A stretch of 64,000 bases of DNA from a virus. Its lineage: Duplodnaviria; Caudoviricetes. A program made the translations under genes and the position numbers. Shown here in pieces: positions 3,001 to 54,079 of the stretch; the first letter of the stretch is position 1, and the number at the start of each line of letters is the position of its first letter. Below the pieces are notes generated by a model. It ran no database searches and was not told the origin of the DNA. It was given only the letters and a program-made list of their open reading frames with translations. The stretch is taken from the IMG/VR virus record IMGVR_UViG_3300026549_000039, positions 32,001-96,000 of that record. One strand, written 5' to 3'.

Positions 3001-3457
3001 TTGACAGAAAGGTTTTATACCCAGTCTGACCAGGCTTCTTTGTCTCTAACGCTTCACCATAGTAGTGTATAGGAATGTTATCCATAGCCAGTAGGCTGAT
3101 TGAAGACGGAGCAGAAGCTCCAGCCATAGTCCTAGCCTGACCAGCCTTCTTAGAATTAGGTACAAACACATTAGCGGGTATACCCAGATCGGCTCGATGC
3201 TGCCTAAAACTGGCTGTCAGGCGCACCGAATCATCGTCATAGTGCAGACCGGAATGCAGCCAAGCTGGGTGTGTTGCAATAATTTTCAGTGCTATGATGT
3301 CACCCTGCTTAAGCGTGTATGAATTTGGGGCAGCCATTATACGCCCAATACCAGGGTACATAAATTCTCGAACATCAGCAGCACTGCCTAGCTGAACAAA
3401 ATCCTCCAGCTGAAACAGTGAATCTACTGGGCGTATTACTTCAGGTCTAACTGGCAT
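2..3457 (-). CDS. Large virion/tail-associated protein (>1150 aa, runs off the left edge), beta-rich with an Ig-like C-terminal module
   Basis: Missing from the ORF track because it has no stop in the window. Its ATG at 3457 overlaps the TAA of the upstream gene (TAATG). Manual translation (MPVRPEVIRPVDSLFQLEDFVQLG...) stays open to the edge, ending ...GIDVTDASNGTKLLRKCRLKNNLLRDRLSNVELIVPDP...LYLSW, which resembles the C-termini of neighbouring proteins. Confidence 0.75.
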   Translation of the reverse strand, partial: MPVRPEVIRPVDSLFQLEDFVQLGSAADVREFMYPGIGRIMAAPNSYTLKQGDIIALKIIATHPAWLHSGLHYDDDSVRLTASFRQHRADLGIPANVFVPNSKKAGQARTMAGASAPSSISLLAMDNIPIHYYGEALETKKPGQTGYKTFLSKIIDEDAVEVTCLSPFEYEIEVKSNLSQDQWFYIPVSSAKGMSNTTWGKMGYESTLPPGATAGLIKMRGEVVLDSKSGTYLVTGDQLNAITQSTMTLYRQSGSQGGQQPAAWYKVVETDTLHNLPHYQIIKGMVDDETEWYACGYKTGCTTVGTGIFVRDTNKPCALSYGKAGSGITHKHIASQANGVFKSAKMGDMLDCGDQYFEQVAKVGFEADYLPDGMVLPFCASELEYVSHREGPAGSFRMPSDPQYNYTYMYHNTLLPSSITPTYIPVAIGQHCYSPVLNFNTATRVTILQAYDLEDEVNLVLKADSSWTQVTTNNHTNGNADLYVPKKISMDPTMSYGSRNNPMGGYDRDQFGYHIGMADYVSGGAQVGYTWHGTAYINWCNPSMNPTFGLDSNSNTKTQGVILGGMIMAFVGFLPQGTPAGTYLWKPFWSVETAPDCLSVVNSEHMPTSMQAKLKPATTMAPYLGMNILTAEGPSIDWLAEQRQDSDGDYKYWQVMKMVQLNNLQPTQITGTILMTIDQDTVPLVGYPIADKPMMMDLDDWTGDKACDVGDLAMTTPFYDPDIKDWVVVAASAQMQKFYRIRVEVNDVDGVTASDPKEYVGRYVTRFKEVIDSKELFDTPYGRLVDVYGLCHTRDIHYLDGEEDDHLVLYGRTEYADSAKVEGSNLVVGTCRTYMEWDLHKDTMSRVRISDVMPEDFQIDDDINWPKGIAVMYPYTYILGFHWEVAPKQPIIDPLVADGIEITGEGWQMALWKVDITSGIINDVIALRDVATFRYTYGIPALNKEANRMYRSDYNTLGAVRKYSFGPDNTNKLPVSTELPKISKSYEFPSLAGICHVSGQLMAFSNYHEKLVLINPLTGAVETLGTNIFPFSYPFNSNVASNGDLVSAISLFGGKHFYTVHPFFHVCIGDGLPPNSYGAGIDVTDASNGTKLLRKCRLKNNLLRDRLSNVELIVPDPADLPGSDMLYLSWTGQDADKVKVLELNNHPSGDTT

Positions 3458-10200: not shown

Positions 10201-11128
10201 TAAGGATGTACCTACCGTCAAACATAGTAAGACTGTATTTATATGGCTGGTGCTCTTCGCCTTCATCGAAGCTGAGACAGTTATGCGTCGGCCCCAGCAG
10301 GGCAAAACGCATATTCATACCACCCTTATCCAGCACAACAATATACTGCGTGTCTACATTAGCCGAGAGATGTGGCCCAAGCCATACCTTTATGCGGCTG
10401 CCAATCAGCACTACATACCTTCCGGCCTCGTCTATGGCTATATTGCAGTACTTGGTATTGAAGGTGCCTACAAAGAACGACGACTTCAAGATGTTTACGA
10501 TTGTGTCAACCTTGGGTTCTGGGTACACACAGGTTCGACCTGGCGCTGATGCAGTCTTCAACTCGTAGCCTAAAGCAATCTCATCGGGCTTACCCGAAGC
10601 TACAAGATTAGCGAAGAACTGTAGACCGCTCAGCTTAATCTGGTAGCGGGGGTTGGTGGAATCGGCGTCATGCTCAAGCCCCATATCCTTGAAGTCAAGC
10701 TGATACCTAGCAATAGAAGCCGTTCTGGTATAGCTGTTGCATATCAGGAAGGACACAGTTATCTTATCAAACGACTCCTCATGATGAACACACATATCAG
10801 TGATCTCATCATACTGTGTGTAGTTTGGGCATGTTTCGACAAGGTAGGTATAGCTACCAACTACCTCATGCGATTCACCGTTTACCAGGTAGATCGTAGC
10901 CATGGTGGGCTGCGCCAAATCCAAAATGAGGTAGTGTTTTATCTCGTCAATGTAAATACACCGCCTAGGCTGGAAGTGCCAGTCCTGTGGAACATTCCCG
11001 TGAATCTTAAATGTCTCTTCTATATTAAGAGACACAGGAAGATACTGCCCAAAGAAGTTATAAGGCAGTAGCCTGGACGGATCCACAGAATTAGCATTTC
11101 TGGATCTGTAAATTAGGTCCTTAAGCAT
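7211..11128 (-). CDS. Large tail adhesin with a von Willebrand factor A domain and Ig-like (ASH/CARDB-type) modules
   Basis: MIDAS motif DIVFLVDTSGSM and later ILITDAG. Ig-like segments SFLVRNES...ELGPKETAVLAV and LYVKNRG...LAPGDVAELEVTF. Confidence 0.7.
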   Translation of the reverse strand: MLKDLIYRSRNANSVDPSRLLPYNFFGQYLPVSLNIEETFKIHGNVPQDWHFQPRRCIYIDEIKHYLILDLAQPTMATIYLVNGESHEVVGSYTYLVETCPNYTQYDEITDMCVHHEESFDKITVSFLICNSYTRTASIARYQLDFKDMGLEHDADSTNPRYQIKLSGLQFFANLVASGKPDEIALGYELKTASAPGRTCVYPEPKVDTIVNILKSSFFVGTFNTKYCNIAIDEAGRYVVLIGSRIKVWLGPHLSANVDTQYIVVLDKGGMNMRFALLGPTHNCLSFDEGEEHQPYKYSLTMFDGRYILTLEDKKSRFLNPKRVSMGANTDDPHDSYIFSDKAWGGGAVADKYYPAREISAGPPGGGNVTYIGYATEWEATSNPEPTEREAVWTIIDVCDLFAGLSPELQPPTAPYQADIVFLVDTSGSMGPHISQIQGNIKNFMNTLHALHVTDLRIGVAAYTTRQRSIYDTSTASMSMWTTSTSGAQSMADTLRVGYINSGSQAWHWSALTWAASQYKYRTMKSRTKYIILITDAGDEDDPISMASAIAYLNDQDIKVCVVGNNPGKYFDPLFTQTGGTLTSMAGAWGPVMAFDMAEKIAVEAGASGETQDWWSTVAAAWQPTILYQYTPATDFATNSYVTAYHENISYISNGSVYRNTVNFLTIYDDYPASGGRPQDSLYCPGLIPGETMNMSFLVRNESNTGTMKRMEIELLDKPDDVTVTLNGFPTELGPKETAVLAVEVAYNPSNTDAGTRHLDIHYKVSYWMQHILSCAYGGAVPDYEQPFYDLYFVEDTQQGNFIPGLSKQIAFDPLYTLAYVTATSYEEGDATYQQSWINKRLYVLTDKILQSKKYESISPGSINGIAGQNISTTGCCWLKVRGPLYWETNRDYELKYNKKTWYIVNQSDSRSYVGHVVLTQDSLPNHAGMGFILINYPEGNIIKPGQSVPVEMYWQAIFNPSGEEMTHKVEDYTINNNSQDGAVGTIWDQNPGFFNHIIYTMPTGMTARLTHLYSEKIKGDGMDIPVKPDQPLQKFDVKLLGDNVYETMTYLDVDLDTVPDKFRWLIPGGIWGGIRDDDSVNDLLIPPGVKPEDMFAYVEWLSPASGLPILPAYIDHKFRPNPEFLFNGDTPNPYQLTPFNKIYSDPYMATLFVGNVVLQSETVANVMVMDFNVYDDPGSELIPCDSGGTELAGWLLEDFWPVSGDFEESVKKLATENDYIFKRTLYVKNRGTRTLPLKLMYGASVVHGISIQDVTINTNPTLAPGDVAELEVTFRFHYTYWESKYINMVKECMYIPRFEVPLSI

Positions 11129-11145
11129 CTAGCTACCATCCTTTC

Positions 11146-12375
11146 CTAGCTAAATTCATAATCTGCCTTCTGCTTGGGCAGGAAGTTAATCTTATCGTAG
11201 TACTGGTAGGGCGTAAAGCTGTCATCATTGACAACTGGAGCTGTCAGACATACACAGAATGTAAACACATCACCTGGACGCAGCGGTCCTGGTATGGATA
11301 TGGTATCGTTGTACCTATTTATATCAGAACTCTCATCCCTGGACAGTAACAGCATAGAATCCCGAGACGTGATAACCATATCATAATAAGTAGTAACAGG
11401 AGCTATATTCTTACAGCGGACCCTCCTAAATGCCACCTGAGCAGAAGAAAGGTTTCCAAGATCAAGAGTATTCGTATTAGGCCAGCCGTCTTCCATTTCC
11501 AGTTTGATCATCATTATTTCAGACTTATATATCCGACCCTCTATCAAGCTGTATACCCATCTACCAGCTGCAAGGATATCCGATCCCTTCATTAACTCCC
11601 CAGACACATACCACGATGTATCATAGGATAGTGGCGAGCCTAATTTATATTTCAACGAGTGTATCACATTAGGCTGGCTAGTAACGACCTCACGACACAG
11701 CAAGTCCATAACGCCATCATGGTATGTACAAGCAACAGCTGTACCATTAGGCTTATCTATAGTGTACCCTCTGTTACCACGAGTGCTGAGATCTATCAGG
11801 ACTGGATTACGAAATAACCCGATCAAATCAAACTCAACTATATACTGACCAAGGTTAGCTGGTACCGTGTCAGACTCTATATCATCTGACAAACCAGCGA
11901 GCAGATATACAGTTGGGCCAATGTTGAATATGTTCGTATACTTCGGATGGTACTTAAGGTATCTGGTAACAGCTGCATGTGTCATATTCCAGACATTGTT
12001 ACCGGGCGGTACCCTGTCGCTGAATGGTACCTCAAATCGCGATACACGCATCACACCATCCGACCGCCCCTGCTGTAGAGAGCCTGTATAAACGGCCATC
12101 TTGCCACCGCCCTCGTGGTTGAGGATGTAGCAGTAGTCGTTGAATTGACTGATACCCAACACATCATCTACTGGACTATCCACAAGGCAGGATGCTCTGA
12201 CAGACGCATCGTCGCGAGATATCCACATCAGCTTGGTCTCTACAGTATCATACGTTATTATTGAATGATCCGTATAATCATAGGCTAGACCTCGCAGATC
12301 AGCTGTTTCTGGAATCTGGTACTCAGCATTATAAGAACCTATAGGCCACAACAGCCTAGTATTTGCATAGTACAC
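11146..12375 (-). CDS. Beta-propeller plus C-terminal Ig-like tail protein
   Basis: LRGLAYDYTDHSIITYD blade; C-terminal LDLGNL...VRCKNI...GPLRPGDVFTFCV; SD AAAGGGGAG. Confidence 0.55.
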   Translation of the reverse strand: MYYANTRLLWPIGSYNAEYQIPETADLRGLAYDYTDHSIITYDTVETKLMWISRDDASVRASCLVDSPVDDVLGISQFNDYCYILNHEGGGKMAVYTGSLQQGRSDGVMRVSRFEVPFSDRVPPGNNVWNMTHAAVTRYLKYHPKYTNIFNIGPTVYLLAGLSDDIESDTVPANLGQYIVEFDLIGLFRNPVLIDLSTRGNRGYTIDKPNGTAVACTYHDGVMDLLCREVVTSQPNVIHSLKYKLGSPLSYDTSWYVSGELMKGSDILAAGRWVYSLIEGRIYKSEIMMIKLEMEDGWPNTNTLDLGNLSSAQVAFRRVRCKNIAPVTTYYDMVITSRDSMLLLSRDESSDINRYNDTISIPGPLRPGDVFTFCVCLTAPVVNDDSFTPYQYYDKINFLPKQKADYEFS

Positions 12376-39861: not shown

Positions 39862-42804
39862 CTAATCATCCTCCACAGTATAAGTATAGTTTGAGTAGTC
39901 TCCATGGTCTACAATATCAACCTTAGCGCCTTTGAGACTACCATAATTTGGACCAACTTCCAGGTCGCCCCTCATGTCGATGTAGTACTCCTTACCACCA
40001 AAAAGCTCGGCGCACCACTCATTCATCGAATCCATAGCCTCATAGTAGAAACGGATCAGATGCTCCTCATAGCCCTTTCTAACCTCAAATACTATAGAGT
40101 CATGAACTGTGTTCACCATACGTATTTTATCCCGCAAGCCCTTCTCCTTGACCTGGCCCATAATAAGCAGGATGAGGAAACAGTTGAAGTCAGATGCGAA
40201 CCCCTGTATAGGACTGTTACCAGCCTGGCGCTTCAGGTCTGCAAGATCTGCCTCCTTAGACAGTATAGCTGGTAGCCTGCGCTTCAGACCCCACAAACCG
40301 GTAACAAACCCCTGAGTCTCCACATCCGTACCACGTGCTTCCATCCAGGGCTTCACATTAGCATAGAAGCCAAACCACTTGTCCATAGCATCCTGCGCTT
40401 CAGCTATAGGAACACCGGCGTTGGCTGCTACAGTTGCAGCATTTGCACCATATACCAACGAAAAGTTTATTGTCTTACTAATCTGACGTTTCTGTTTTTC
40501 AACGCGACTTAGATCACCATTATAAAACATATTTGCCGCTGTATAGCTATGAAGGTCTAAGCCTTGATCGTAAGCGTGCTTCAGTTTGGGGTCTTTAGTA
40601 AACGACCCAAGACCACGCAACTCAGCCTGCGACAGGTCGAATTGCATAAACAGGTTTCTGCTATCGCGTGTTACGAACATCGACTTAATAGCCTTTGCTG
40701 TATCACCACGAGGGTAATTCTGCGCGTTGGGCCTAGTACTACTAAGCCTACCTGTTGCAGCTCCGTCCACATTCCACTGGCTGCGTACAGCCCAATCACT
40801 CCACGTCATCTTAACCATACCCTCTAGGTACGTACCATGTATCTTAACCAGCTTCTTGAACTCAGCGACCTTTTGCATCCCCTCTACTAAATGAACGTAC
40901 TTCTGGTCCTTACGACCAAACATATTCTCATTATTAGAAAGGATCTCACATATCTTCTCAAGGTTGTCCGCATTCAAAGACAGCTTACCTGTAGAAGTTT
41001 TTCCCTTACGACCCAGCTTCTTAAGCAGGCCCAGCTTCGCTGCATCGTCCAGGACAGCGGCTATCAAAGCTGCTAAATGATGCGCCGAGTTTGGATTGAA
41101 CACATGCTTCTCCGGGTTGTAGTCCTCAACCAGTGGGAAGGAGCACAGCGTTGTTGTAACAGCTGCCTTCATTTCCTTATCCATCTGCTCTATAGATGCC
41201 ACTATACGCTGGTACAAAGGCTGCCTGAACCAATCCCGTATCTCTGACATCTTTGATTCGTACTCCTTCATAAGACCGCCCATTACTTGCGGGTTGATCT
41301 TGAACCCGTTAATAGAAGCCTGCATAAGCTCCTTATTTAGACGGTGCTTGAAGTCAACGTAATCAATAACCCAGTAAGCTGAAACTTCATCCTCCTGACA
41401 CATCTCAGCAAACTTGTAATAGAGCTTAAGGTTCCAATACAAATCTCCTCTGTGGTACTTAAGCAGCGTATCAGCTGGTATCTTAGAGAAGTCAAGCTGC
41501 CCAGCAGCATTCGTAAACTGGTTTAGCTCCATAGACCAATCAGGAACTCCAAAGTACTTACCAACCAAGAACTTCAATTTGTTGTCTGTTGAGTTCTCAT
41601 CAATCAGCTTGTGCATTACTCTGGTGTCCCTGTGCTCTGGAAGGTCATCTACAGACTCAAACACTCTCTCCTTCCAGCACATCATAAGATCAAACCAAAG
41701 ATTATGACCGCAGACTTTAAACCCATCATCCCTAAGCCTTTTAAATATCTCACCCAAAGACCCAATAGCCTGATCCTTGAACTGGAACGTATAGCTTCCA
41801 ACAGCTCCAATACCAGCCACAATGATGAAGTTTGTCGGGTCTGCTGTGTTGATTGATTTCGTCTCAACGTCAAACGAAACAGTCTTATCCTCATAATCCT
41901 CATACAGCTGGTTGAGAGCGGCCATAAACAGGTCAAGTTCAGGAGGGGTAAGCATCTTATCATAGATAGCAGCATTCAAGTCTGTATCCAAATTGATGGT
42001 GTTCTCATCCCTACCGTCAATAATACTCTCACCAGGCTGGGCATTCTGGAGCTTTGTGTAATAGGCATACACCTTCTCGAAGTCCTGAATAATCTCAGGT
42101 AGCCTATCTGGATTATGAAGACCAGCAGCAGGATGCAGCGTAGGAAGCACATTAAATGTTCTGGCGGCATCCTCGTAACTAAACGTAAGCTCTGTAGGAA
42201 TACCATGTGCTGCTGATATACTCGTGATGGTTGCATTGTCGTCAGCCGCATCATGGATCATCTTATAGGGTACAGCACCCGTAACCACGATGAGACAGTT
42301 ATCAGCAACTAATGTCTTATCACATAGTATCCTAGGCCAGAACTTACCACCACAATTCCTATACCATCCAGCCGTAGGTGTCTTGTTGTCCGTAGGCCAG
42401 CACAGGACGGAATTGCCTAGCATGAGGTCAGGCATTGTATCCTTCCACATCTGTGTCAGCATACTGAACAGCAGCCTTCCAGCATCACCCACATAACCAA
42501 GACCACTTTCGTCTTCTCCTCGACCTGGAGCCTCACCTATCACAATTAAAGACACAGGTTTTACTTCATCAGCGTTTCGTGATACAGGCCTAACAATAGA
42601 TGGAAACACATACTGCTTCCTATGCCCATCCAGCTTGCACTTGTCACAATGGCTCCACAACGCCGGTTCTGTTCGTAGCTCATGCTTAAACAGATCCGAC
42701 AGACTGTACATAGCAATCTTACAACCATCAGCTTCAACTAAATAATCATTGTATTCTGGTTCAAACGGATCCCCAAGAGCTTCATTTGGAAACCAGTCAA
42801 GCAC
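39862..42804 (-). CDS. polA: Family A DNA polymerase with N-terminal family-4 uracil-DNA glycosylase domain and 3'-5' exonuclease (SPO1-type)
   Basis: UDG: CDKC, GEAPG..ED, NSVLCWP, LHPAA. Exo: FDVET, GHNLWFD. Pol: TGRLSS..PNAQN, DLSQAELR, KTINFSLVYG, VHDSI. Start placed at GTG 42804 after GAGGTGG. Confidence 0.92.
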   Translation of the reverse strand: MLDWFPNEALGDPFEPEYNDYLVEADGCKIAMYSLSDLFKHELRTEPALWSHCDKCKLDGHRKQYVFPSIVRPVSRNADEVKPVSLIVIGEAPGRGEDESGLGYVGDAGRLLFSMLTQMWKDTMPDLMLGNSVLCWPTDNKTPTAGWYRNCGGKFWPRILCDKTLVADNCLIVVTGAVPYKMIHDAADDNATITSISAAHGIPTELTFSYEDAARTFNVLPTLHPAAGLHNPDRLPEIIQDFEKVYAYYTKLQNAQPGESIIDGRDENTINLDTDLNAAIYDKMLTPPELDLFMAALNQLYEDYEDKTVSFDVETKSINTADPTNFIIVAGIGAVGSYTFQFKDQAIGSLGEIFKRLRDDGFKVCGHNLWFDLMMCWKERVFESVDDLPEHRDTRVMHKLIDENSTDNKLKFLVGKYFGVPDWSMELNQFTNAAGQLDFSKIPADTLLKYHRGDLYWNLKLYYKFAEMCQEDEVSAYWVIDYVDFKHRLNKELMQASINGFKINPQVMGGLMKEYESKMSEIRDWFRQPLYQRIVASIEQMDKEMKAAVTTTLCSFPLVEDYNPEKHVFNPNSAHHLAALIAAVLDDAAKLGLLKKLGRKGKTSTGKLSLNADNLEKICEILSNNENMFGRKDQKYVHLVEGMQKVAEFKKLVKIHGTYLEGMVKMTWSDWAVRSQWNVDGAATGRLSSTRPNAQNYPRGDTAKAIKSMFVTRDSRNLFMQFDLSQAELRGLGSFTKDPKLKHAYDQGLDLHSYTAANMFYNGDLSRVEKQKRQISKTINFSLVYGANAATVAANAGVPIAEAQDAMDKWFGFYANVKPWMEARGTDVETQGFVTGLWGLKRRLPAILSKEADLADLKRQAGNSPIQGFASDFNCFLILLIMGQVKEKGLRDKIRMVNTVHDSIVFEVRKGYEEHLIRFYYEAMDSMNEWCAELFGGKEYYIDMRGDLEVGPNYGSLKGAKVDIVDHGDYSNYTYTVEDD

Positions 42805-43159
42805 AAATACCCACCTCACTTGCAATACCTGGTATACGCAATGAACCACTAAGACGGTTCAATAATTCAATCGCATTCGCATGAGCTGCTGCTTCCTCAA
42901 GTACAGCCATATGTAGCCGTGGTACATTGTCTAGTTCACTAAGAGCTGCTATATGCTCCGTATGAGCAGCAGCAACTCTAACTAATGCCTCCAGTAGATC
43001 AGGCGCGCTCGAAATTAAAACAGCGTCACCATCAGGATTGTCACCTGAGTACTTGCTTACATCCATAGGAACACCTGATGGTACTCCACAAAACGACCCT
43101 GTTGGGATCAGAACCTTAGTTCCATCACAAACCCATGGACCCGGTGTATAAGTCCACAT
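42797..43159 (-). CDS. Phage hypothetical protein (TPGPW...APDLLEAL family)
   Basis: YTPGPW and DAVLISSAPDLLEAL, a common phage small-protein signature. Confidence 0.65.
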   Translation of the reverse strand: MWTYTPGPWVCDGTKVLIPTGSFCGVPSGVPMDVSKYSGDNPDGDAVLISSAPDLLEALVRVAAAHTEHIAALSELDNVPRLHMAVLEEAAAHANAIELLNRLSGSLRIPGIASEVGICA

Positions 43160-44504: not shown

Positions 44505-45037
44505 CTGTTAGCCTCCCTGCGTGACTTCTCCTTGTTAGGATCAGTGCTTCCACCCTGCTTCCCACCCGATCTAAGATATGTGATAAGCTGGTTGGCGTCC
44601 CCATAATACATCTTCTGCTTCTTTACATCCTTCCATTTGTTCTTGGCTGCACAGAAGTCAACCCATGGAGAATGCTTATGCTTCAAACGGATTATCCACA
44701 TCAACGAATCTGGATGAAACTTAACACCCTCAGACGTAGGTGTTATACCATTCTTGGCTAATATAGCAGCATTCCTGTCTGCTAAATCAGATGGTGTAGA
44801 GCTAGGTTTATTCTCACTATTCTCACTATCCTCATTACTAAGCCTATCTGGATCCCACCTGCAATGAGACTGACCATCATAGATACCTGCAATCTCATCG
44901 GCATAAGCGCAGGAACCATCACCAGAGCTACTGGGCTTATATCCAATGCACTCACAAGCATCTATTGCACTAAAAGCACCACAAAATGGAACAAGAACCC
45001 GGAACCTAACATGACCAGCCATCAGCTCACCTCTCAA
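44501..45037 (-). CDS. Hypothetical protein with an N-terminal Cys cluster
   Basis: Directly downstream of the helicase; likely start MAGHVRF after GAGGTGA. Confidence 0.55.
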   Translation of the reverse strand: MRGELMAGHVRFRVLVPFCGAFSAIDACECIGYKPSSSGDGSCAYADEIAGIYDGQSHCRWDPDRLSNEDSENSENKPSSTPSDLADRNAAILAKNGITPTSEGVKFHPDSLMWIIRLKHKHSPWVDFCAAKNKWKDVKKQKMYYGDANQLITYLRSGGKQGGSTDPNKEKSRREANR

Positions 45038-47712
45038 TACATAGCATCCTGGCTATTCATCTCACCCTGCTGTAGAGCTTTAGGTGGTGTCTTTGCTACT
45101 GGTGTTGGCTTCTTTGCCTGGTTCACATAAAGCGCATGTGGACGATCAGGCCGCTTGTACATAGGAACCATAACTTTCTCAGCCTTCACCTTGCGCTGTA
45201 GCTTGTTCATCTGCTCAAGCTCAAGTTCTGTAGCTCTCAGAAGATCATTAACTATATCGACACAATCACCATCCCCTTCATTCGGCAGTACACCCAAAGA
45301 CTTGATAGTAGACTTGGAGTAATCCATAGTGCAAGCAAAGTCATAAAACTCCTCACCATAGCGGTTCTTAATAGTGCTGATGACACCAGCTGCAAGCCTG
45401 GGGTGGTCCCTACTACGCAAGAACGATAAACCTAGCACAAGCGAAGCATCCTGCAACACTTCCTTTGAACCATACAAATCATTTCCGCGCATAGGTTTGA
45501 AGTTTGTTGGGTTTGATGTTGTAACCGTGTGTGCCTTCTCACCACCAGCCTGAGCTGCAACCCATATGGTTATACCTAGGCTCTTAGCTACAGCTGACAA
45601 CTCCTTAAGGATCACGCCTGTATATCCCCAGCCTATCTCCTCCCTACCAGTACCTGCATTTGTCTTCATAAGGGCTGCATAGTCAATAATCATGACTGGA
45701 ATATTAACCTTCTCCCTAAAATGCAAGTTCCTAAGATACAGAGCAAGTTGTGCTGGTGACACTTCTCCAGCAGGAAGATCTAAGAAATACACATTATGCC
45801 TGTTCTTAATCTCAGTACGGGCTGCTTCCTTCGCATACTTAACAGCATCACGCTCGTTATCGTCAACAGCTCTAGGGTCAAGGAACACATAGCTAGAAGG
45901 CACAGCTCCACCAGTACAGTTCGACATAACGCGGAACGCTAATGACTCCGCTGGGGTCTCAAGAGTTACATACAGCACATTGTGCTTTTTGCACAATTCT
46001 GCGGCCATTGTGCATAATGTGGATGTGTTGTGGGTGACTATGAAATCGTTCGTCAGGTACAACCCATCAGGATTAGCCACCTGTATGCACATACACTCCT
46101 CTTTCTTATCCAACTTCTCGATAGAGTCGATCCATCGTGTAAGATACCGAGCCTGGCACTGAGGCTTATTACGGTCCAACCGATTTGGTACAGAGCGAAA
46201 CGGAACAATAGTATTAGGCAATGCGAAGTTAATCCTGTAAAAATCTCGGCACGGTACTCTCTGGCCGTCTTTCTTATACCACGTATGCTTAACCCGTATC
46301 GGATGCACCTTTCCTGCAAGGCTACGAATCAAGATTGCTACTGCCTCACACAGGTTTCTGCTCGTTGAACCATAACAATAACCTAGACTATAACCAGAGC
46401 ATTCCCCATCAGAATCCATCAAACCCCGCAGGAGCTCAATTCGATCCTCAACAGAAGCCTTAAGATACATTGTTGGTATGTACTTCTCATAAGAGTGCAA
46501 ACCTAGCATCCCAAGTTCCCTAAGCTGTGCCCTAATACCCTTAACAGAAACATATGCCACTGTTTTCCTCCTATTGTCATAGTACGTTGAGAAAGAGCAG
46601 ATATGCTTCAGATAATCTAATACTGTTGTGTGGGCAGCATTTAAGCACAACCTTCCTTCTGTATCCCCATCGCCCAGCCACAATCCCATAATGTAAGGAT
46701 GAATAGGCAGCGTATGGTTGGAGCAGTAATGAACAGGCTGATAAGATGGAATCTCCCACTGCCGTAGAGGTGAGCATTTACCATGTGGTAAACGTACACC
46801 CAGCTTCATTATTTCAGCTGTAGTAAGAACTTGCCAGGTTTTAGTAACCGAATGGTGTCTCCTGTCCATCGTGCGAGCATTCTGCCCGCGAACTGTCCAT
46901 AGATGATCGGCACCACACAAGGTGGAACTACCGTCATCAAATGTAACTCGATAGATATCCTTCAATCCGTTATCAAAAACTTTAAGAACCTGTGTTGGTT
47001 TTCCATCTACACCAAATACCCAATCACCAGGCCTGAGAGAGCCCCACAACCTGTCCCCATCAGGAGTCGGTACAACAAGGCTTTTAGGCTGCTCTTTCCC
47101 GCTGCCATAAGACCCAACGATTACATTAACTGAACCCACAGGCGTACCAGCCATAAAACCTAAACCTGGTATCGGTATTGGAATCCTAGGCTTCTGCATC
47201 TGGAGCTTACCATCCATCCAGGTTTCAAATACAGAAGCCATGTCGCCTTCCTCTGTATTTGATGCAGCCCTCTCAATGATAGAGAGCTTGGTGTAAACGC
47301 TGTCTATAGCCTTTCGCGCCTTATCATTGTCAACCTTACCGTCTTCATATATCTCAGCCAGCTTACTGCTAACCTGCTTGAACACATTAGCTTTCATAGT
47401 ATCAGCAAACGTATCAAGGATAAATGAAGCCCTTGTCTCCTCTGATCCCGCTACCGCTATACCAAGCTCTAGGTTTTCTGATCCTTTTTCACCGAATACA
47501 GAAACAAAGTCACACTCATCAGGCAGTGCATTGTACTTGGTGTAGTACAAATACAAGGCTCGCCATATACTCTTAGCAGGCTCGGTGGATATCATGTGGT
47601 TTGTCTCAACAAAAGTAGCATAGCGAGCCATTTGAGGTGGATCCACAAACATGTTGCCTATAAACACCAGTTCCTGTGTCTTCAGCTCGACAGTCTGATC
47701 ATTAACAGGCAT
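45034..47712 (-). CDS. dnaB: DnaB-like (SF4) replicative helicase containing an intein
   Basis: Walker A GSYGSGK/T split by the intein; VLYVTLE, IIDYAALM, WVAAQ, QDASLVLG, KNRYG. Start set at ATG 47712 (MPVNDQ). Confidence 0.88.
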   Translation of the reverse strand: MPVNDQTVELKTQELVFIGNMFVDPPQMARYATFVETNHMISTEPAKSIWRALYLYYTKYNALPDECDFVSVFGEKGSENLELGIAVAGSEETRASFILDTFADTMKANVFKQVSSKLAEIYEDGKVDNDKARKAIDSVYTKLSIIERAASNTEEGDMASVFETWMDGKLQMQKPRIPIPIPGLGFMAGTPVGSVNVIVGSYGSGKEQPKSLVVPTPDGDRLWGSLRPGDWVFGVDGKPTQVLKVFDNGLKDIYRVTFDDGSSTLCGADHLWTVRGQNARTMDRRHHSVTKTWQVLTTAEIMKLGVRLPHGKCSPLRQWEIPSYQPVHYCSNHTLPIHPYIMGLWLGDGDTEGRLCLNAAHTTVLDYLKHICSFSTYYDNRRKTVAYVSVKGIRAQLRELGMLGLHSYEKYIPTMYLKASVEDRIELLRGLMDSDGECSGYSLGYCYGSTSRNLCEAVAILIRSLAGKVHPIRVKHTWYKKDGQRVPCRDFYRINFALPNTIVPFRSVPNRLDRNKPQCQARYLTRWIDSIEKLDKKEECMCIQVANPDGLYLTNDFIVTHNTSTLCTMAAELCKKHNVLYVTLETPAESLAFRVMSNCTGGAVPSSYVFLDPRAVDDNERDAVKYAKEAARTEIKNRHNVYFLDLPAGEVSPAQLALYLRNLHFREKVNIPVMIIDYAALMKTNAGTGREEIGWGYTGVILKELSAVAKSLGITIWVAAQAGGEKAHTVTTSNPTNFKPMRGNDLYGSKEVLQDASLVLGLSFLRSRDHPRLAAGVISTIKNRYGEEFYDFACTMDYSKSTIKSLGVLPNEGDGDCVDIVNDLLRATELELEQMNKLQRKVKAEKVMVPMYKRPDRPHALYVNQAKKPTPVAKTPPKALQQGEMNSQDAMY
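46027..47094 (-). mobile_element. Class-3-type intein (356 aa) with a LAGLIDADG homing endonuclease
   Basis: Begins EQPKSLVVPTPDG right after the P-loop Lys. Block B ADHLW; GLWLGDG and RGLMDSDG; block F CMCIQV; ends IVTHN/T. Confidence 0.92.
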
Positions 47713-47716
47713 TCTG

Positions 47717-47947
47717 TCACCTACCACCAACAGTAGACGGTATTGCAAACTTCGCAAGCCTAAAGCAGGAATCAGAAGTCTGATACAAAGGCACAGGTCT
47801 ATTACCATACCTGAGATCATATCCTAGCTTCCTACCGCTTATACGGCACGTGAACACCCTATCTCTTTGATCTCTACCTACAGCCATGGAAGCTACATTT
47901 GCACAGGACTCACAACTACCATTCCTAGGACAGCTTCGCAATGACAA
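47717..47947 (-). CDS. Small Cys-rich hypothetical protein
   Basis: CPRNGSCESC...C...C; fills the gap upstream of the helicase. Confidence 0.5.
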   Translation of the reverse strand: MSLRSCPRNGSCESCANVASMAVGRDQRDRVFTCRISGRKLGYDLRYGNRPVPLYQTSDSCFRLAKFAIPSTVGGR

Positions 47948-49467: not shown

Positions 49468-50169
49468 CTAACTGTCACTGGTGTCAACAGCTTGGTAATC
49501 TGGATCACATTCCTTCCAAGCCTCCTCACACTGACACAGGAAGCAGTCAGAGACGCCGACCTGGCTTGGATTGCGTTCCTGGTAATAACACTGGAACCTG
49601 TTACCTTCCTCCGGGGCTTCCCAGTGTGTGCAAGTAGTTCTACCTGATACTGGCTGGTTACAAAGATACGCACCACCAGACTTTTTGCACGCATTACCCT
49701 TCAGCTTTTCCATACGAGCCTGCAATGTTTCTATATCAGCCTGTATATCTGAGCTTGCCTGCTGCTTAACGAGTGCCTCAAGGTCATAATACATACCAGG
49801 AGAAGCGTAGGCTAAAAAATCCTGGTTGTTACCCTGTGGATCTGTGAAGATCACAGTGTAGTAGTTTTTCATAACGGTATCGAAAACCTTCTTCAGGCTC
49901 TTCATCGCATCCGTATCCAGATTGGTGAAGGCGGTTTCGTACAATTCATCCAGGCAACGCGGCCCTGTGTAGGCCACACCATTAGCCTCAGCCTTGCGCA
50001 CCTTCGGTCCGAGCACGTCACCGGCGGCCATTTCTGTAGCGTCCCTGATAGAGAGAAGCAGGTTTCCTTCCACGGAACCAGGAGACAGGTCGGGTATGTC
50101 GCCGCCTGGTTTCCAAGCCCTCCAGGAATACTGTGTCACGTGCTGCGTCCGAACCGTTTGATCCAGCAA
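49468..50169 (-). CDS. Hypothetical protein with coiled coil and Cys-rich C-terminus
   Basis: SD AAGGAG before TTG; eight Cys in the C-terminal ~75 aa. Confidence 0.65.
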   Translation of the reverse strand: MLDQTVRTQHVTQYSWRAWKPGGDIPDLSPGSVEGNLLLSIRDATEMAAGDVLGPKVRKAEANGVAYTGPRCLDELYETAFTNLDTDAMKSLKKVFDTVMKNYYTVIFTDPQGNNQDFLAYASPGMYYDLEALVKQQASSDIQADIETLQARMEKLKGNACKKSGGAYLCNQPVSGRTTCTHWEAPEEGNRFQCYYQERNPSQVGVSDCFLCQCEEAWKECDPDYQAVDTSDS

Positions 50170-50204
50170 TTTTTACACTCCTTTTGCAGCCGCCGCGCCG
50201 CCCT

Positions 50205-50337
50205 TTTTTAAACCAGCAATCTGGTAGCGGCGGCGGGTAAATTTTTAAACCAGCAATCTGGTAGCGGCGGCGGGTAAATTTTTTAAACCAGTCGTAGGTA
50301 ATGCTTGCCAGCCGCTGCCAGATTATTAAACCAGCAA
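50205..50337. repeat. Two exact tandem 37-bp repeats plus partial direct and inverted copies
   Basis: TTTTTAAACCAGCAATCTGGTAGCGGCGGCGGGTAAA at 50205-50241 and 50242-50278; partial TTTTTAAACCAG to 50291; imperfect inverted CAGCCGCTGCCAGATT at ~50309-50324; TTAAACCAGCAA at 50326-50337. Confidence 0.9.
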
Positions 50338-50418
50338 CCAATACTTTCACGCATGGGTAGCATTGCGTAGTTTCGTATACCCGCTACCCGTAAAAATTTT
50401 TCCTGATCGGCGAAGCCG

Positions 50419-50470
50419 TTTTCTTTTAAAAAGACTTTTATAATATACTTTACTTTATAAAATGAAAAAT
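50419..50470. other. AT-rich tract (candidate DNA-unwinding element) of a putative replication origin
   Basis: TTTTCTTTTAAAAAGACTTTTATAATATACTTTACTTTATAAAATGAAAAAT, about 40 bp from the iterons. Confidence 0.7.
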
Positions 50471-50510
50471 CCGCGTAAAACGTTCAGCCGCAACCACTTA
50501 CGCGTTTACG

Positions 50511-50640
50511 CCCCACATCAGATAGACCAGATCCCCACATCAGATAGACCAGGCTCCCCACATCAGATAGACCAGGCCCCACATCAGATAGACCAGATCC
50601 CCACATCAGATAGACCAGTCCCCCACATCAGATAGACCAG
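50511..50640. repeat. Iteron array: six identical 20-bp direct repeats
   Basis: CCCCACATCAGATAGACCAG starting at 50511, 50533, 50556, 50577, 50599 and 50621 (periods 22, 23, 21, 22, 22). Confidence 0.93.
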
Positions 50641-50681
50641 GCTGACTTTAGATTGGAGTACGTATTTATACCTAGACGATC

Positions 50682-51602
50682 TTACTTTTGCTGTTCAACT
50701 TCTAGCTGTTTAGAAGTAACCGCCAGGTGTACACCATTGCTGGTCACATCGAGTAGCGTATATGCACCACACCCTTCAATAGCTGGTCTAAGGGTATAGT
50801 CTACCCAGCTCACCATACCTCTCCTCCACCCACGGTTATCATGGGTAGCTGTTTCAAAGGGAGGCAGCGTTGTGAATCTATACAGCAGATTGAATGGCAT
50901 TATGTATTCATTCTGTCTCTGCTCATAGTTCATTTTCCTGTCTAATAACAGGAACCTGTTTACGGAGAAGGCATGAATGCTGCGTTTCCTACCAAACTGG
51001 TACATCTCCCTATGTACTACTAGAGGAGACGGTGTTTGTGCTTCCTGCAATCGGGCTACTATGTCATAAGTAAGGGTTACTTTATAAGCATAACCATCAC
51101 ACGTAGCAGCAGACACCACACTAATAGGCTGCTCAATCGCGTGCAGGGTATTGTAAGCCGCATCAAGCCTGGTTTTGTACTTTCTTCTGGATCGTGTAAC
51201 AGCATCACTAGATGGGCCTGATCCTTTCGGATAGACCATCTCAGCAATACCGTTCAAGTTTAGATCCACAGTAGGGATCCAGTTTTGGTTTGGAGAGTTT
51301 ACTGAATTGAGTTTGATGATTGCTGACATAAGAAAATCAGCAATCATAGCAACATCCTCCTTACACCCTGCTGTTAAGAGAGCGTGAAGAATGTCGTTTC
51401 CAGCTTTGTTTTGGTACACTTCTATCCTGTTGTTCATCGAGTCCACCACCAGATAACAGCACAATATTTTGTCCTGCTTTTCAGAAGGATAAAACTTCTG
51501 TTCTATGTTATGAACCCGTTGATATCTATGGAGTTTTGGTTTATAATAAGCTCCGTACTCGGGTCCAGCTCCTGAGTGCGTCGCCTTCCTCAGCTGACCC
51601 AC
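50682..51602 (-). CDS. Putative replication initiator (Rep, winged-helix-like)
   Basis: Ends about 40 bp from the iterons; 306 aa; TVDLNLNGIAEMV...RRKYKTRLDAAYNTL resembles the first WH of plasmid initiators. Start codon uncertain (no SD). Confidence 0.55.
   Translation of the reverse strand: MGQLRKATHSGAGPEYGAYYKPKLHRYQRVHNIEQKFYPSEKQDKILCCYLVVDSMNNRIEVYQNKAGNDILHALLTAGCKEDVAMIADFLMSAIIKLNSVNSPNQNWIPTVDLNLNGIAEMVYPKGSGPSSDAVTRSRRKYKTRLDAAYNTLHAIEQPISVVSAATCDGYAYKVTLTYDIVARLQEAQTPSPLVVHREMYQFGRKRSIHAFSVNRFLLLDRKMNYEQRQNEYIMPFNLLYRFTTLPPFETATHDNRGWRRGMVSWVDYTLRPAIEGCGAYTLLDVTSNGVHLAVTSKQLEVEQQK
51519..51547 (+). promoter_or_regulatory. Sigma70-type promoter antisense to the putative rep gene
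   Basis: TTGATA (51519-51524), 17 bp, TATAAT (51542-51547). Confidence 0.7.
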
Positions 51603-51663
51603 TGAGGTGGCAACTATAGGCCCGATTTGAGCAATCCCTTTTGGGCCTATTTCTTACTATTGC

Positions 51664-51672
51664 ATTATAGCA
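51664..51672 (-). promoter_or_regulatory. Extended -10 promoter candidate for the putative rep gene
   Basis: TGCTATAAT on the minus strand, about 60 bp upstream of GTG 51602. Confidence 0.45.
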
Positions 51673-51730
51673 TACCAGCTCTTCTGCTGTGTGGGCTGAC
51701 CCTCGCGTAGTAGACTAGCGGTATTGATGA

Positions 51731-51756
51731 GCCGGGCTTTCACCCCGGCCTTTTTT
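51731..51756 (+). terminator. Intrinsic terminator with the U-tract on the plus strand
   Basis: GCCGGG-ctttcac-CCCGGC-cTTTTTT. Confidence 0.75.
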
Positions 51757-51967
51757 ATACCTTCAAGCATTCATGGTCCCTAAACCACATACATGACCAT
51801 ACACCGTCAAAGACCTGTTTACCTTTTCTGTAATGTACACACCTGTTTTGTGCAAAGTAACCTAAAGGGCAGGTAGGCAGGTCTAAATCCAACCCTAACC
51901 TATAGTCATTGGCTTTTTTAGGCTTTACTGTACCACCTATGTCACGATTCTGCCTTAATAAGTTCAA
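51755..51967 (-). CDS. Small Cys-rich hypothetical protein
   Basis: Coupled to the primase gene; CPLG...C...C...C. Confidence 0.55.
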   Translation of the reverse strand: MNLLRQNRDIGGTVKPKKANDYRLGLDLDLPTCPLGYFAQNRCVHYRKGKQVFDGVWSCMWFRDHECLKV

Positions 51968-52950
51968 ATATCAGCACCTACCTGTTCCATTACCTGTCTA
52001 AGCGTAGATATCTTGTGGCATGATGTAGAGGTGCAGAAGAACATACCAAAGTAGTCCGAGTTTGGGTTAATATCCAGGTATGCTGATGGATGCCTGTCAT
52101 CATGAAACGGGCAGCAGCATATCACTTTACCACCTGCTCTACCGTAAGCCTTATAACCAGCACCATTTAGAACACCAACTACATCCACATGTTCAATGAT
52201 ACTCATGGCATCCTCTTTTACCTTCATACGCCTGGAAGTGAACTCGGCATCCATAGGCTTGAACTTCTGGTACATGTTCTGCCTAAGTTTCTGTAGCTCC
52301 TTACTCTCACACCTACCCAGGGCTGACTTCATATCATCTACCTTATAATAGTATGTCCTATTAGGAAACACTGGAAGAGACTTATTGATTGACTCAAACA
52401 CCATTGTGTCAACCATAACAGCTGGTTTCCTGGTATTCCTGGAATAGAAGTTCAAGCACTGCATGGGTAGTATACTCCTGGTATCAGCCTTTATACTAGC
52501 CTTCATCAGTGAAGCAGGATAGGCATAATCAAAGGCAGACATGGGCCTGTCCAGCACCCAGTACAGATGCCATCCGTTACCAGTTCGCACAGCAGAGGTA
52601 GGGGGTATCCAATCACAGAACTCATAGAGGGTAGCATCCTGTACCTGCCTCTTCTTACCTGCCCACTCCCCTCTATCATAATCAAAGTCCATAGCAACAC
52701 ACCATGCCTTCTCGACGCCTACAAGGCTCCTGTTAGGGGTATTGTACAGTCCCGCTGTACTCCTAACAACCTCTAGTATCTTCTTCAGGCCTGGATAACG
52801 TTTAGGCATCTCGGCCACAGAATAGAAGAAAGCAGGGTTGTTTGCACCAGTATCAGGACCAGCAAACATCTTGTCAGACTCTCCAGCAAAGTGCTGTGAT
52901 AAAAACTCCATAAACAGAATGTCTACTCCCTTGTCCACAACATCCATCAA
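51964..52950 (-). CDS. AEP-superfamily (RepB'-like) primase with a C-terminal CHC2 zinc finger
   Basis: Motif I AMDFD, motif II PPTSAVRTGNGWHLYW; C-terminal CPFHDDRHPSA...FFCTSTSC. Confidence 0.78.
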   Translation of the reverse strand: MMDVVDKGVDILFMEFLSQHFAGESDKMFAGPDTGANNPAFFYSVAEMPKRYPGLKKILEVVRSTAGLYNTPNRSLVGVEKAWCVAMDFDYDRGEWAGKKRQVQDATLYEFCDWIPPTSAVRTGNGWHLYWVLDRPMSAFDYAYPASLMKASIKADTRSILPMQCLNFYSRNTRKPAVMVDTMVFESINKSLPVFPNRTYYYKVDDMKSALGRCESKELQKLRQNMYQKFKPMDAEFTSRRMKVKEDAMSIIEHVDVVGVLNGAGYKAYGRAGGKVICCCPFHDDRHPSAYLDINPNSDYFGMFFCTSTSCHKISTLRQVMEQVGADI

Positions 52951-52965
52951 GATGCCTCTCCTCTC

Positions 52966-52994
52966 TTGACAAGTGTAAGTATTTTGCTTACAAT
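52966..52994 (+). promoter_or_regulatory. Sigma70 promoter with an overlapping palindromic operator
   Basis: TTGACA (52966-52971), 17 bp, TACAAT (52989-52994); GTAAGTA-ttt-TGCTTAC at 52975-52991. A possible divergent TTGCTA-16-TATAAT lies at 52998-53025. Confidence 0.8.
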
Positions 52995-53032
52995 ATCATT
53001 ATACACCGCAAGGTGAATTTAGCAAGAAGGAG

Positions 53033-54079
53033 TTGGGTATTAAAATGATCGATGGAACTGCTTTTGGGTCTGACAAACCTGTTTCCTATAGGTCTAAGGT
53101 AGCAGAAAAGCTATTGAGGCAGGCTAGTCAATTTGTATCAGACCACCCGCATATGCTTAGTGATATTGACAACACGCTTAACAAGGCCATCTCTTGCGCT
53201 ATGGACTCTGTTGGTGTGTACCCTCCTGATATTTTAGGTGGTGATGGTAAGTACAAGATGCGTCTACCTACTATCAGTAATGGAAAGCTCTATATGGTCA
53301 CCATTACTATAAGAGGCAAGATCCCAGAAAGCATGGACGAGACTGATGTAGTTGAGTCAAATGTGGTATCCGTGGATCGTGTTCCTCTGGCTCAGTGGGC
53401 AAGCACAAATCTCAATGACGATCATAGGCAAGCTACCTATGAAGCCATCGAGCATGAGGTGATTGATTCAGCTATAAGTACCATACGGAAGCTAAGCACA
53501 GTAACGTGTGGCGATATGGCTACAGCTAAAAGAGCAGAAGAAACTCTAGCGGGTATGCTAGAGAACTACACTGCTGCTGCGAGCAACCTAAGCATGAGTG
53601 AGCGCCAGCTTATTGCCTATCTTCCTGATCGTGACTATGACGCAGAAAAGGCTAGGGTCGTTGTATCATTTCAGTATTTTGATGGGAAAACCAGGGTATA
53701 CCGTGTGCAAGCTGAGACGTGGGATGATGCTGATTCGACTTGGAGACCGCATATAGGTGATGATGATGACCTCTGCTCAGATGAGACAGTGCGCACTATG
53801 ATTGCAGCTGGTGAGCAAGGCCAGAACAGTATGGTCGATCATCCACAGCATTATGGTGGTGCTGATAATCCTTATGAGGCCATTAAGGTTATTGAAGCCT
53901 GGATGGATCCTAGCGCAAGCTATGGATTTTGTATAGGAAATGCTCTAAAGTATATATGTAGGGCTGGTAAGAAGAGTGGGTCAAGCACAAGGCAGGACCT
54001 TGAGAAAGCAATATGGTATTTGAACAGGGCATGTGAGGAGGCGAAGACCAATGAAGAAGAAACAGCAGACAAGAAGTGA
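53033..54079 (+). CDS. Protein with a C-terminal DUF3310 (T7 gp1.7 nucleotide kinase/SaV-like) domain
   Basis: VDHPQHYGG...EAIKVIEAW...GFCIGNALKYICRAGKK...DLEKAIWYL. Confidence 0.8.
   Translation: MGIKMIDGTAFGSDKPVSYRSKVAEKLLRQASQFVSDHPHMLSDIDNTLNKAISCAMDSVGVYPPDILGGDGKYKMRLPTISNGKLYMVTITIRGKIPESMDETDVVESNVVSVDRVPLAQWASTNLNDDHRQATYEAIEHEVIDSAISTIRKLSTVTCGDMATAKRAEETLAGMLENYTAAASNLSMSERQLIAYLPDRDYDAEKARVVVSFQYFDGKTRVYRVQAETWDDADSTWRPHIGDDDDLCSDETVRTMIAAGEQGQNSMVDHPQHYGGADNPYEAIKVIEAWMDPSASYGFCIGNALKYICRAGKKSGSSTRQDLEKAIWYLNRACEEAKTNEEETADKK

Follow-up and report, generated by a model that had tools for sequence, protein, structure and literature searches.

Positions 50170-52950 of the stretch of viral DNA analysed here (the window; 64,000 nucleotides, bases 32001-96000 of the 146,263-bp IMG/VR virus record IMGVR_UViG_3300026549_000039; Duplodnaviria, Caudoviricetes) very probably hold an iteron-type replication origin of a phage, together with its initiator. 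The initiator, referred to here as Rep, would belong to the structural class of RepE and π (pi) but to a new sequence family, and the origin would serve a replisome encoded by the phage itself. A preliminary description of this DNA had proposed a plasmid-type iteron replicon with a cognate initiator inside a phage replication block, and this proposal is now supported by the predicted fold of Rep and by a conserved linkage between its gene and the repeats.

The record has a completeness of about 86% and is classed as linear. Bovine gut and rumen metagenomes from at least 13 studies contain the stretch or close variants of it. The lineage that carries it is a large uncultured rumen phage, with a PolA at most 35% identical to that of any deposited phage, and the DNA of the region gave no match when compared with 50,697 phage records. 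On these sequence comparisons, the phage has no close relative among deposited phages. The loci or contigs of relatives are designated L007-L011, L014-L016, L018 and L021; L020:1080-2300 corresponds to G000:C1:14400-15600 of the phage's own genome.

Structure of the probable origin region

The elements of the putative origin and the rep gene are as follows.

50205-50241 and 50242-50278, no strand assigned: two exact copies of a 37-bp direct repeat.
50182-50241, no strand assigned: GC-rich inverted repeats, overlapping the stretch of the first exact 37-bp repeat.
50352-50392, no strand assigned: hairpin (inverted repeat).
About 50420-50475, no strand assigned: AT-rich tract, candidate DNA unwinding element, 88% AT in one 50-bp window.
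50475-50494, no strand assigned: 20-bp box between the AT tract and the iterons, exclusive to the two putative iteron origins of this genome.
50511-50640, minus strand: iterons, six exact 20-bp copies with a period of 21-23 bp (the unit is window:50511-50530).
50682-51437, minus strand: rep, encoding a 251-aa initiator-like protein with two predicted winged-helix domains, of a new sequence family.

The region from 50170 to 50681 contains no credible gene, and its neighbouring genes are on the minus strand. The 37-bp repeats, the hairpins, the AT tract and the six 20-bp repeats that the preliminary description had placed in it were all located as described. The iterons start at 50511, 50533, 50556, 50577, 50599 and 50621, giving spacings of 22, 23, 21, 22 and 22 bp, and in the orientation of the gene the array starts 42 nt past the rep stop codon. 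Even when up to 2 mismatches are allowed, the 146,263-bp record has no further occurrence of the 20-mer, and a reversed control gave none. A 57-aa open reading frame (ORF) on the plus strand that spans the iterons (50462-50635) was judged to be an artefact of the repeats.

The AT-rich tract contains the most AT-rich 50 bp of the 146 kb, and is the sole place in the record with a 50-bp window of at least 84% AT. Its core can be aligned between the window, the second module of the same genome (ori1; see below), L008, L015 and L016, despite their differing iterons. The 20-bp box occurs twice in the 146 kb with up to 4 mismatches allowed, at the same relative place and on the same strand at both origins, and also aligns in L008; a shared factor might act there.

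On the other side of the AT tract, degenerate copies of the 13-nt core of the 37-bp repeat lie at 50157, 50279 and 50325. The copy number of the 37-bp repeat differs between strains, one cattle-metagenome contig being without 35 bp (window 50256-50292). As a single strand, the inverted-repeat region folds better than shuffled sequences (z -3.2). The whole repeat and hairpin region, 50157-50392, sits upstream of a 233-aa gene, and priming signals, operators and a promoter region are all open candidates for its role. No DnaA box was found inside the origin at up to 1 mismatch, a result of little weight given that the host is not identified. An Rfam scan of 49900-53100 gave just one chance snoRNA-like match, which was below threshold.

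The Rep protein

The gene next to the repeats had been given in the preliminary description as 306 aa long. This corresponds to an open frame starting from a GTG at 51602, but it was rejected in favour of the ATG at 51437, which on the sequence comparisons is most likely the true start, giving a protein of 251 aa. The shorter reading is favoured because the homologues, which are 251-256 aa long, all begin at a methionine matching this ATG, and because sequence upstream of it is exchanged between close relatives: L010, whose Rep is 98% identical, differs over much of the stretch upstream of the ATG, diverging within the leader, and two strain contigs from other cattle samples break from the window exactly at 51437, with the upstream sequence replaced.

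Rep has no match in Pfam, PHROG or NCBIfam. Fifteen members of the family were compared with Pfam-A, including RepC (PF06504), with no match at E ≤1, and the family does not match the sequence models PF01051 (Rep3_N), PF21205 (Rep3_C) or TrfA; a six-frame scan of the genome with PF01051 likewise gave no match. A profile search of PDB sequences with the family found nothing (best E 1). Using tblastn, no match to Rep was found in the 50,697 phage records, and chance-level matches alone (E 0.2-0.5) in the 72,556 plasmids of PLSDB. Pattern scans based on two alignments produced no confirmed relative in IMG/VR, GTDB species genomes or JGI metagenomes, and HMMER, run exhaustively on 1.8 billion cluster representatives, yielded 11 Rep-family clusters only.

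AlphaFold2 was used to predict the structure of Rep from the 15-sequence alignment, with a pLDDT of 90.4 and a pTM of 0.87. The matches to this model in the PDB, made with Foldseek, are nearly all iteron initiators, namely RepE54 of mini-F and R6K π on iteron DNA (2nra), both with a probability of 1.00, and a complex of Rep with iterons and DNA unwinding element (8aan). An aligner independent of Foldseek placed π at the top (2nra_C, Z 12.3, root-mean-square deviation (rmsd) 3.8 Å, 208/251 residues), followed by the first winged-helix domain (WH1) of pPS10 RepA (Z 8.2), RctB domains 2-3 (Z 8.0) and dimeric RepE (Z 7.0), while generic winged-helix proteins scored Z 5-6. A winged-helix initiator fold, which the preliminary description had put forward for checking, is thus what both methods return. 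Independently, language-model features put Rep beside Rep3_N clusters with a score of 0.93. Among Atlas models, Rep3 and TrfA match Rep at TM 0.54-0.57 by query, and three mostly viral clusters match at TM 0.66-0.72, of which one has Rep3_N on a fifth of its members and two are unnamed. In BFVD, the matches are 'replication initiator' proteins of uncultured phages (A0A6J5MGL1 and A0A8S5MSG4, Foldseek E 4e-4 to 3e-3). The model therefore indicates that Rep has the WH1-WH2 fold of the plasmid iteron initiators, with a sequence that no existing model covers.

Linkage of gene and repeats in relatives

Ten genes of the family, at nine loci of relatives, had readable flanks. At eight of the nine (L007-L011 and L014-L016), direct repeats begin at -109 to +42 nt from the stop codon, and their period is 21-25 bp in seven of these eight. 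Genes that stand without adjacent repeats, which the preliminary description had seen as contrary to its proposal, are therefore the exception. The sequence of the repeat differs wherever the Rep protein differs, as can be seen from the individual loci.

L010, Rep 98% identical: the same six iterons as in the window.
L007, Rep 55% identical: a related but different unit, at least 10 copies.
L008, Rep 52% identical: a related but different unit, 3 copies.
L009, Rep 52% identical: a related but different unit, 2 copies, the array being cut by the contig end.
L014, Rep about 25% identical: a different unit again, with its first copy 5 nt beyond the stop codon and the array cut by the contig end.
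L016, Rep matched with an hhalign probability of 100% at 27% identity: an unrelated 21-22-mer, 6 copies.
L015, Rep matched with an hhalign probability of 99.9% at 20% identity: an unrelated 21-22-mer, 3 copies.
L011, two tandem Rep paralogues (509-2262): three 13-mers with a 10-bp period after the second gene.

This conserved linkage across diverged sequences is the strongest evidence for the reading as an iteron origin. The surroundings are kept as well: the gene order of primase, 70-aa ORF, rep, origin and 233-aa gene is found in relatives, with the helicase gene following in those whose contigs extend far enough. In the window, the origin is flanked by the primase on one side and by the helicase-to-PolA genes on the other, all in the same minus-strand block.

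Two of the loci have further features. In L007 the array (3073-3307) continues up to the end of the contig, with its units arranged as a higher-order repeat of 90 bp; this may reflect an expansion of the array or a collapse in assembly. Tandem Rep paralogues, as at L011, are also present at L021:3431-5271.

A second module in the same genome

The family profile identified a second gene in the genome.

G000:C1:14820-15578: second rep, 265 aa, 25% identical to the Rep of the window, family profile E 2.8e-86.

The module to which it belongs (G000:C1:14400-15600) is 68 kb from the first, and 17 kb before the window. The stop codon of the second rep touches two 19-bp iterons, and there are five more in inverted orientation, spaced 21-24 bp. 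The 20-bp box of the window recurs beyond these iterons, as does the 13-nt core of the 37-bp repeats, in two copies, and there too is an AT-rich tract whose core is the shared one. The leader of the second rep is similar to that of the first, with an extended -10 followed by a hairpin, which keeps a similar arm even though the iterons are unrelated. There are thus two modules with different iterons and with Rep proteins that are paralogous at 25% identity, and the most likely reading is therefore of two origins in this phage, with a separate and specific initiator for each.

A more elaborate proposal can be made, which we regard as unlikely: that these are two orthogonal Rep/iteron origins with a shared design for unwinding and loading, whose separate initiators have different tasks (for example, a low-copy episome in the rumen host as against lytic amplification), the level of the second Rep being set by an antisense RNA. 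If true, a phage of a lineage that has no cultured member would be living like a plasmid, yet with no recognisable partition genes.

The preliminary description had suggested that the phage may persist as a phage-plasmid. In a wider form of this suggestion, a phage-plasmid or a plasmid-like carrier state would use one Rep/iteron module for low-copy upkeep and the other for lytic amplification. The presence of two modules of different specificity in one genome is consistent with this, as is the candidate antisense RNA over the rep leader (see below), which is a common copy-control device in plasmids. No tyrosine or serine recombinase was found in the 146-kb record, and in view of the lack of an integrase, any dormancy would have to be episomal. 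However, no ParA, ParB or ParM-type gene was found above threshold in the 146 kb, an absence that is provisional given that the record is about 86% complete: PF02195, PF13614 and PF01656 gave no match above cut-off, and nor did PF06406 (ParM-type), although the controls of this last scan were also silent. The Rep family was not found in the 72,556 plasmids nor, by pattern scans, in bacterial species genomes, and the module lies inside a full lytic-style replication block. A phage-plasmid or carrier state is therefore unsupported and seems unlikely.

Evidence for and against an origin

Several observations weigh against the interpretation of the region as an iteron origin. One of the more distant relatives of the primase, at L018 (48% identity), is without a Rep gene beside it. 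There is no clear iteron-like operator in the rep promoter. The iterons lie downstream of rep, just past its 3' end, whereas in F, R6K, P1 and pPS10 they lie upstream. No Rep_3, TrfA or RepC sequence model matches Rep, and because of this the homology rests on predicted structure. Finally, the GC skew, which had been suggested as a check in its cumulative form, does not single out the origin, because it follows gene orientation; it has a local minimum at the divergent gene switch at about 53.0 kb, 2.4 kb off. The skew is uninformative on the site of the origin, and neither supports nor refutes it.

Instead of an origin, the repeats might be an array with a regulatory or roadblock function, a sink for copy control (as P1 incA is), a centromere or a packaging site, bound by a winged-helix transcription factor. 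Winged-helix folds are common in regulators, and the array is positioned past a gene in a long co-directional unit, so that a protein bound there could keep read-through transcription from entering the helicase-to-PolA genes. We nevertheless consider this very unlikely. The structural match spans both winged-helix domains, with a Z of 12.3 as against the 5-6 of generic winged-helix proteins; a conserved and extreme AT-rich element always adjoins the array; and the module recurs with new repeats but with the same AT core, as is expected of an origin.

Neighbouring replication genes

The genes on either side of the origin are as follows.

51964-52950, minus strand: primase, with an AEP catalytic domain (about residues 5-230) and a C-terminal DnaG-type CHC2 zinc ribbon (about residues 250-316), both as predicted from the model.
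51755-51967, minus strand: 70-aa ORF separating primase and rep; L007-L009 have a called gene of 69 aa in this position.
49468-50169, minus strand: 233-aa gene, the first gene beyond the origin; its position is kept in L008, L010, L015 and L016.
45034-47820, minus strand: DnaB-family (SF4) replicative helicase, 928 aa, interrupted by a LAGLIDADG-type intein.
39862-42849, minus strand: DNA polymerase A (PolA), 995 aa, with N-terminal UDG and 3'-5' exonuclease domains.

The neighbouring AEP primase of the preliminary description is borne out by its fold, though it is invisible to Pfam, in which the N-terminal two thirds have no match and PF01807 reaches an E of 5e-5, below its cut-off. In the AlphaFold2 model (pLDDT 85), the catalytic domain resembles cyanophage S-2L PrimPol (Z 12.5) and RSF1010 RepB' (Z 11.4 with 3h20, rmsd 3.5, 168 aligned; and Z 11.1), while the C-terminal 80 residues resemble the zinc domains of T4 gp61, Twinkle and DnaG (1d0q) with a Z of 6.3-6.8. 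Residues D88, D90 and H128 are invariant in 17 homologues. The predicted AEP fold with its acidic and histidine motifs confirms the assignment to the AEP superfamily, at the level of the model. The accessory domain is a helix bundle in RepB' and the other Pri-type primases, as against a zinc domain in the DnaG type (PMC8567376). As modelled, the phage enzyme combines the two types: its AEP catalytic domain is followed at the C-terminus by a DnaG-type zinc ribbon, at a place where a helix bundle is usual in AEP primases.

These genes bear on the likeness to IncQ plasmids that the preliminary description had drawn. RSF1010 is comparable in being self-contained, with its own initiator, primase and SF4 helicase and with 20-bp iterons and an AT-rich region. 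A strict IncQ replicon would require more than this, namely a RepC-family initiator, a RepB'-type primase acting on hairpins like ssiA and ssiB (a pair of 40 nt each on opposite strands), and leading-strand-only replication, and is very improbable here. It would agree with the 20-bp iterons and their 1-3 bp spacers, with the match of the AEP domain to RepB', with the GC-rich inverted repeats adjoining the AT tract, and with the SF4 helicase encoded nearby (for the RSF1010 design, see PMC8567376). It does not agree with the initiator, which is not recognisably RepC: no member of the Rep family matches any Pfam model at E ≤1, RepC included, and the structural relatives of Rep are π, RepE, RepA and TrfA, with no RepC structure among the fold matches. 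(A scan of the genome with PF06504 gave no match either, but its controls were also silent.) The primase has a zinc ribbon where RepB' needs a helix bundle (PMC8567376), and S-2L PrimPol matches its catalytic domain at least as well as RepB' does. The inverted repeats at 50182-50241 and 50352-50392, which are just candidate ssi-like hairpins, are not conserved in L008, and the corresponding hairpin at the second origin reads as the terminator of a convergent gene. The phage helicase also differs, being a long DnaB-family protein with an intein. The likeness to IncQ is therefore one of analogy only.

The helicase gene is 2.35 kb from the non-coding region, close to the 2.5 kb given previously for an SF4 helicase, and its orthologues in L010 and L016 are 536-539 aa long and without the insert. 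The 233-aa protein has no match in Pfam, PHROG or NCBIfam, and its Atlas features are at noise level (0.85); a role as helicase loader or organiser is a guess only. In L010 (17155-20179), PolA is called as two ORFs (620 and 303 aa), both with DNA_pol_A matches, which could be a split gene, an intervening element, or a problem of assembly or frame. In L015, an IS605-family OrfB/TnpB (Cas12f-like) gene is inserted in the replication block (10929-12050).

Proposed mechanism

The following steps are drawn by analogy from iteron plasmids, the general design and mechanism of which have been reviewed (PMC4980987). Rep, as a very diverged structural relative of the WH1-WH2 initiators π, RepE, RepA and TrfA, would bind as monomers to the six 20-bp iterons just past the rep stop codon. 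The iterons are about two helical turns apart, and therefore all the monomers should be on one face of the DNA. The complex of Rep and iterons would strain and melt the adjacent AT-rich element. At the opened element the phage helicase would be loaded, perhaps with the help of one of the small proteins encoded between origin and helicase (the 233-, 162- and 211-aa proteins are candidate loaders); the primase would prime, and PolA would then extend. Host DnaA, DnaB and DnaG are probably dispensable, their functions being taken over by the phage helicase, the AEP/zinc-ribbon primase and PolA. Expression of rep is probably from the extended -10 promoter, and may be modulated by the leader hairpin and possibly by an antisense RNA of about 205 nt. 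Given that the iterons are past the 3' end of rep, transcription of rep would read into the origin.

Comparison with known systems

The two-winged-helix fold that is predicted for the whole of Rep is shared with the plasmid initiators R6K π (2nra), F RepE (1rep), pPS10 RepA (1hkq), RK2 TrfA and RepA of the phage-plasmid P1. As in iteron plasmids (PMC4980987), the cognate direct repeats, here 19-21 bp long, recur about every two helical turns, and next to them is an AT-rich unwinding element that has a conserved core. Apart from the position of the iterons, the phage system is unlike these plasmids in four respects. Its initiator has no detectable sequence similarity to theirs, with Pfam Rep3_N, Rep3_C and TrfA all silent; its origin is without a DnaA box; it encodes its own partner enzymes, a DnaB-like helicase, an AEP primase and PolA; and it has two paralogous modules in one 146-kb genome.

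In the phages lambda (O and ori-lambda) and SPP1 (G38P with oriL and oriR), a phage initiator binds direct repeats beside an AT-rich region. Lambda has its iterons within the O gene and one protein for a single origin; SPP1 has two origins and one protein for both. The present phage is thus like SPP1 in probably having two origins, but differs from it in that each has its own paralogous initiator and iterons.

The same fold as that of Rep is found in the BFVD proteins A0A6J5MGL1 and A0A8S5MSG4 and in the unnamed viral Atlas clusters, and therefore initiators like Rep3 are, as a kind, nothing new in tailed phages. These proteins are of other sequence families, only 11-12% identical to Rep, and the comparison is of the protein alone. 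The design of the iteron origin is known too; what is new is the Rep protein family and its doubling in one genome. The family is very small and is invisible to Pfam, PHROGs and NCBIfam, and it extends the known range of WH1-WH2 initiators.

To our knowledge, the origins of large uncultured phages have almost never been defined. Here the sequence is enough to name the origin, its initiator, the unwinding element and the enzymes that act downstream, which makes the system directly testable in vitro. The diverged pairs of Rep and iterons, with their common unwinding core, are a ready system for studying the evolution of initiator specificity, and could serve as orthogonal replication parts. The two paralogous pairs of initiator and origin raise the question of why one phage should have two orthogonal origins.

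The rep leader

Two features overlap in the leader of rep.

51616-51672, minus strand: rep promoter and inverted repeat, with a TG-extended -10 at 51664-51672 and the inverted repeat at 51616-51650.
51519-51760, plus strand: candidate antisense RNA of about 205 nt, with a near-consensus promoter at 51519-51547 and an intrinsic terminator at 51731-51760.

The -10 and the inverted repeat that follows it are better conserved than Rep itself, and are kept in relatives down to 52% protein identity; in the diverged relatives L014, L015 and L011, there are hairpins of other sequence at the same place. The inverted repeat may form a stem-loop at the 5' end of the rep mRNA, or may be an operator. In the Rep_3 class, autorepression acts through an inverted repeat of the rep promoter that has part of the iteron in common with it; read by eye, the inverted repeat of the window shares 6/7 bases with one end of the iteron.

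The candidate antisense RNA overlies the rep leader and has a fold z of -5.1. Its promoter is kept in L007-L009 but not in L010. An isolated contig of 169 nt from a cattle metatranscriptome covers 51568-51736, although its strand is not known and carry-over of DNA is possible. The same library has no contig over rep or the primase, which says nothing on their expression. An antisense RNA is therefore plausible but not shown.

The part of the window from the start codon to the promoter-proximal hairpin (51438-51640) is a swap-prone cassette. In the two strain contigs, the leader cassette is replaced by 146 or 203 unrelated bases, and in L010 there is a different stretch with a 35-bp tandem repeat.

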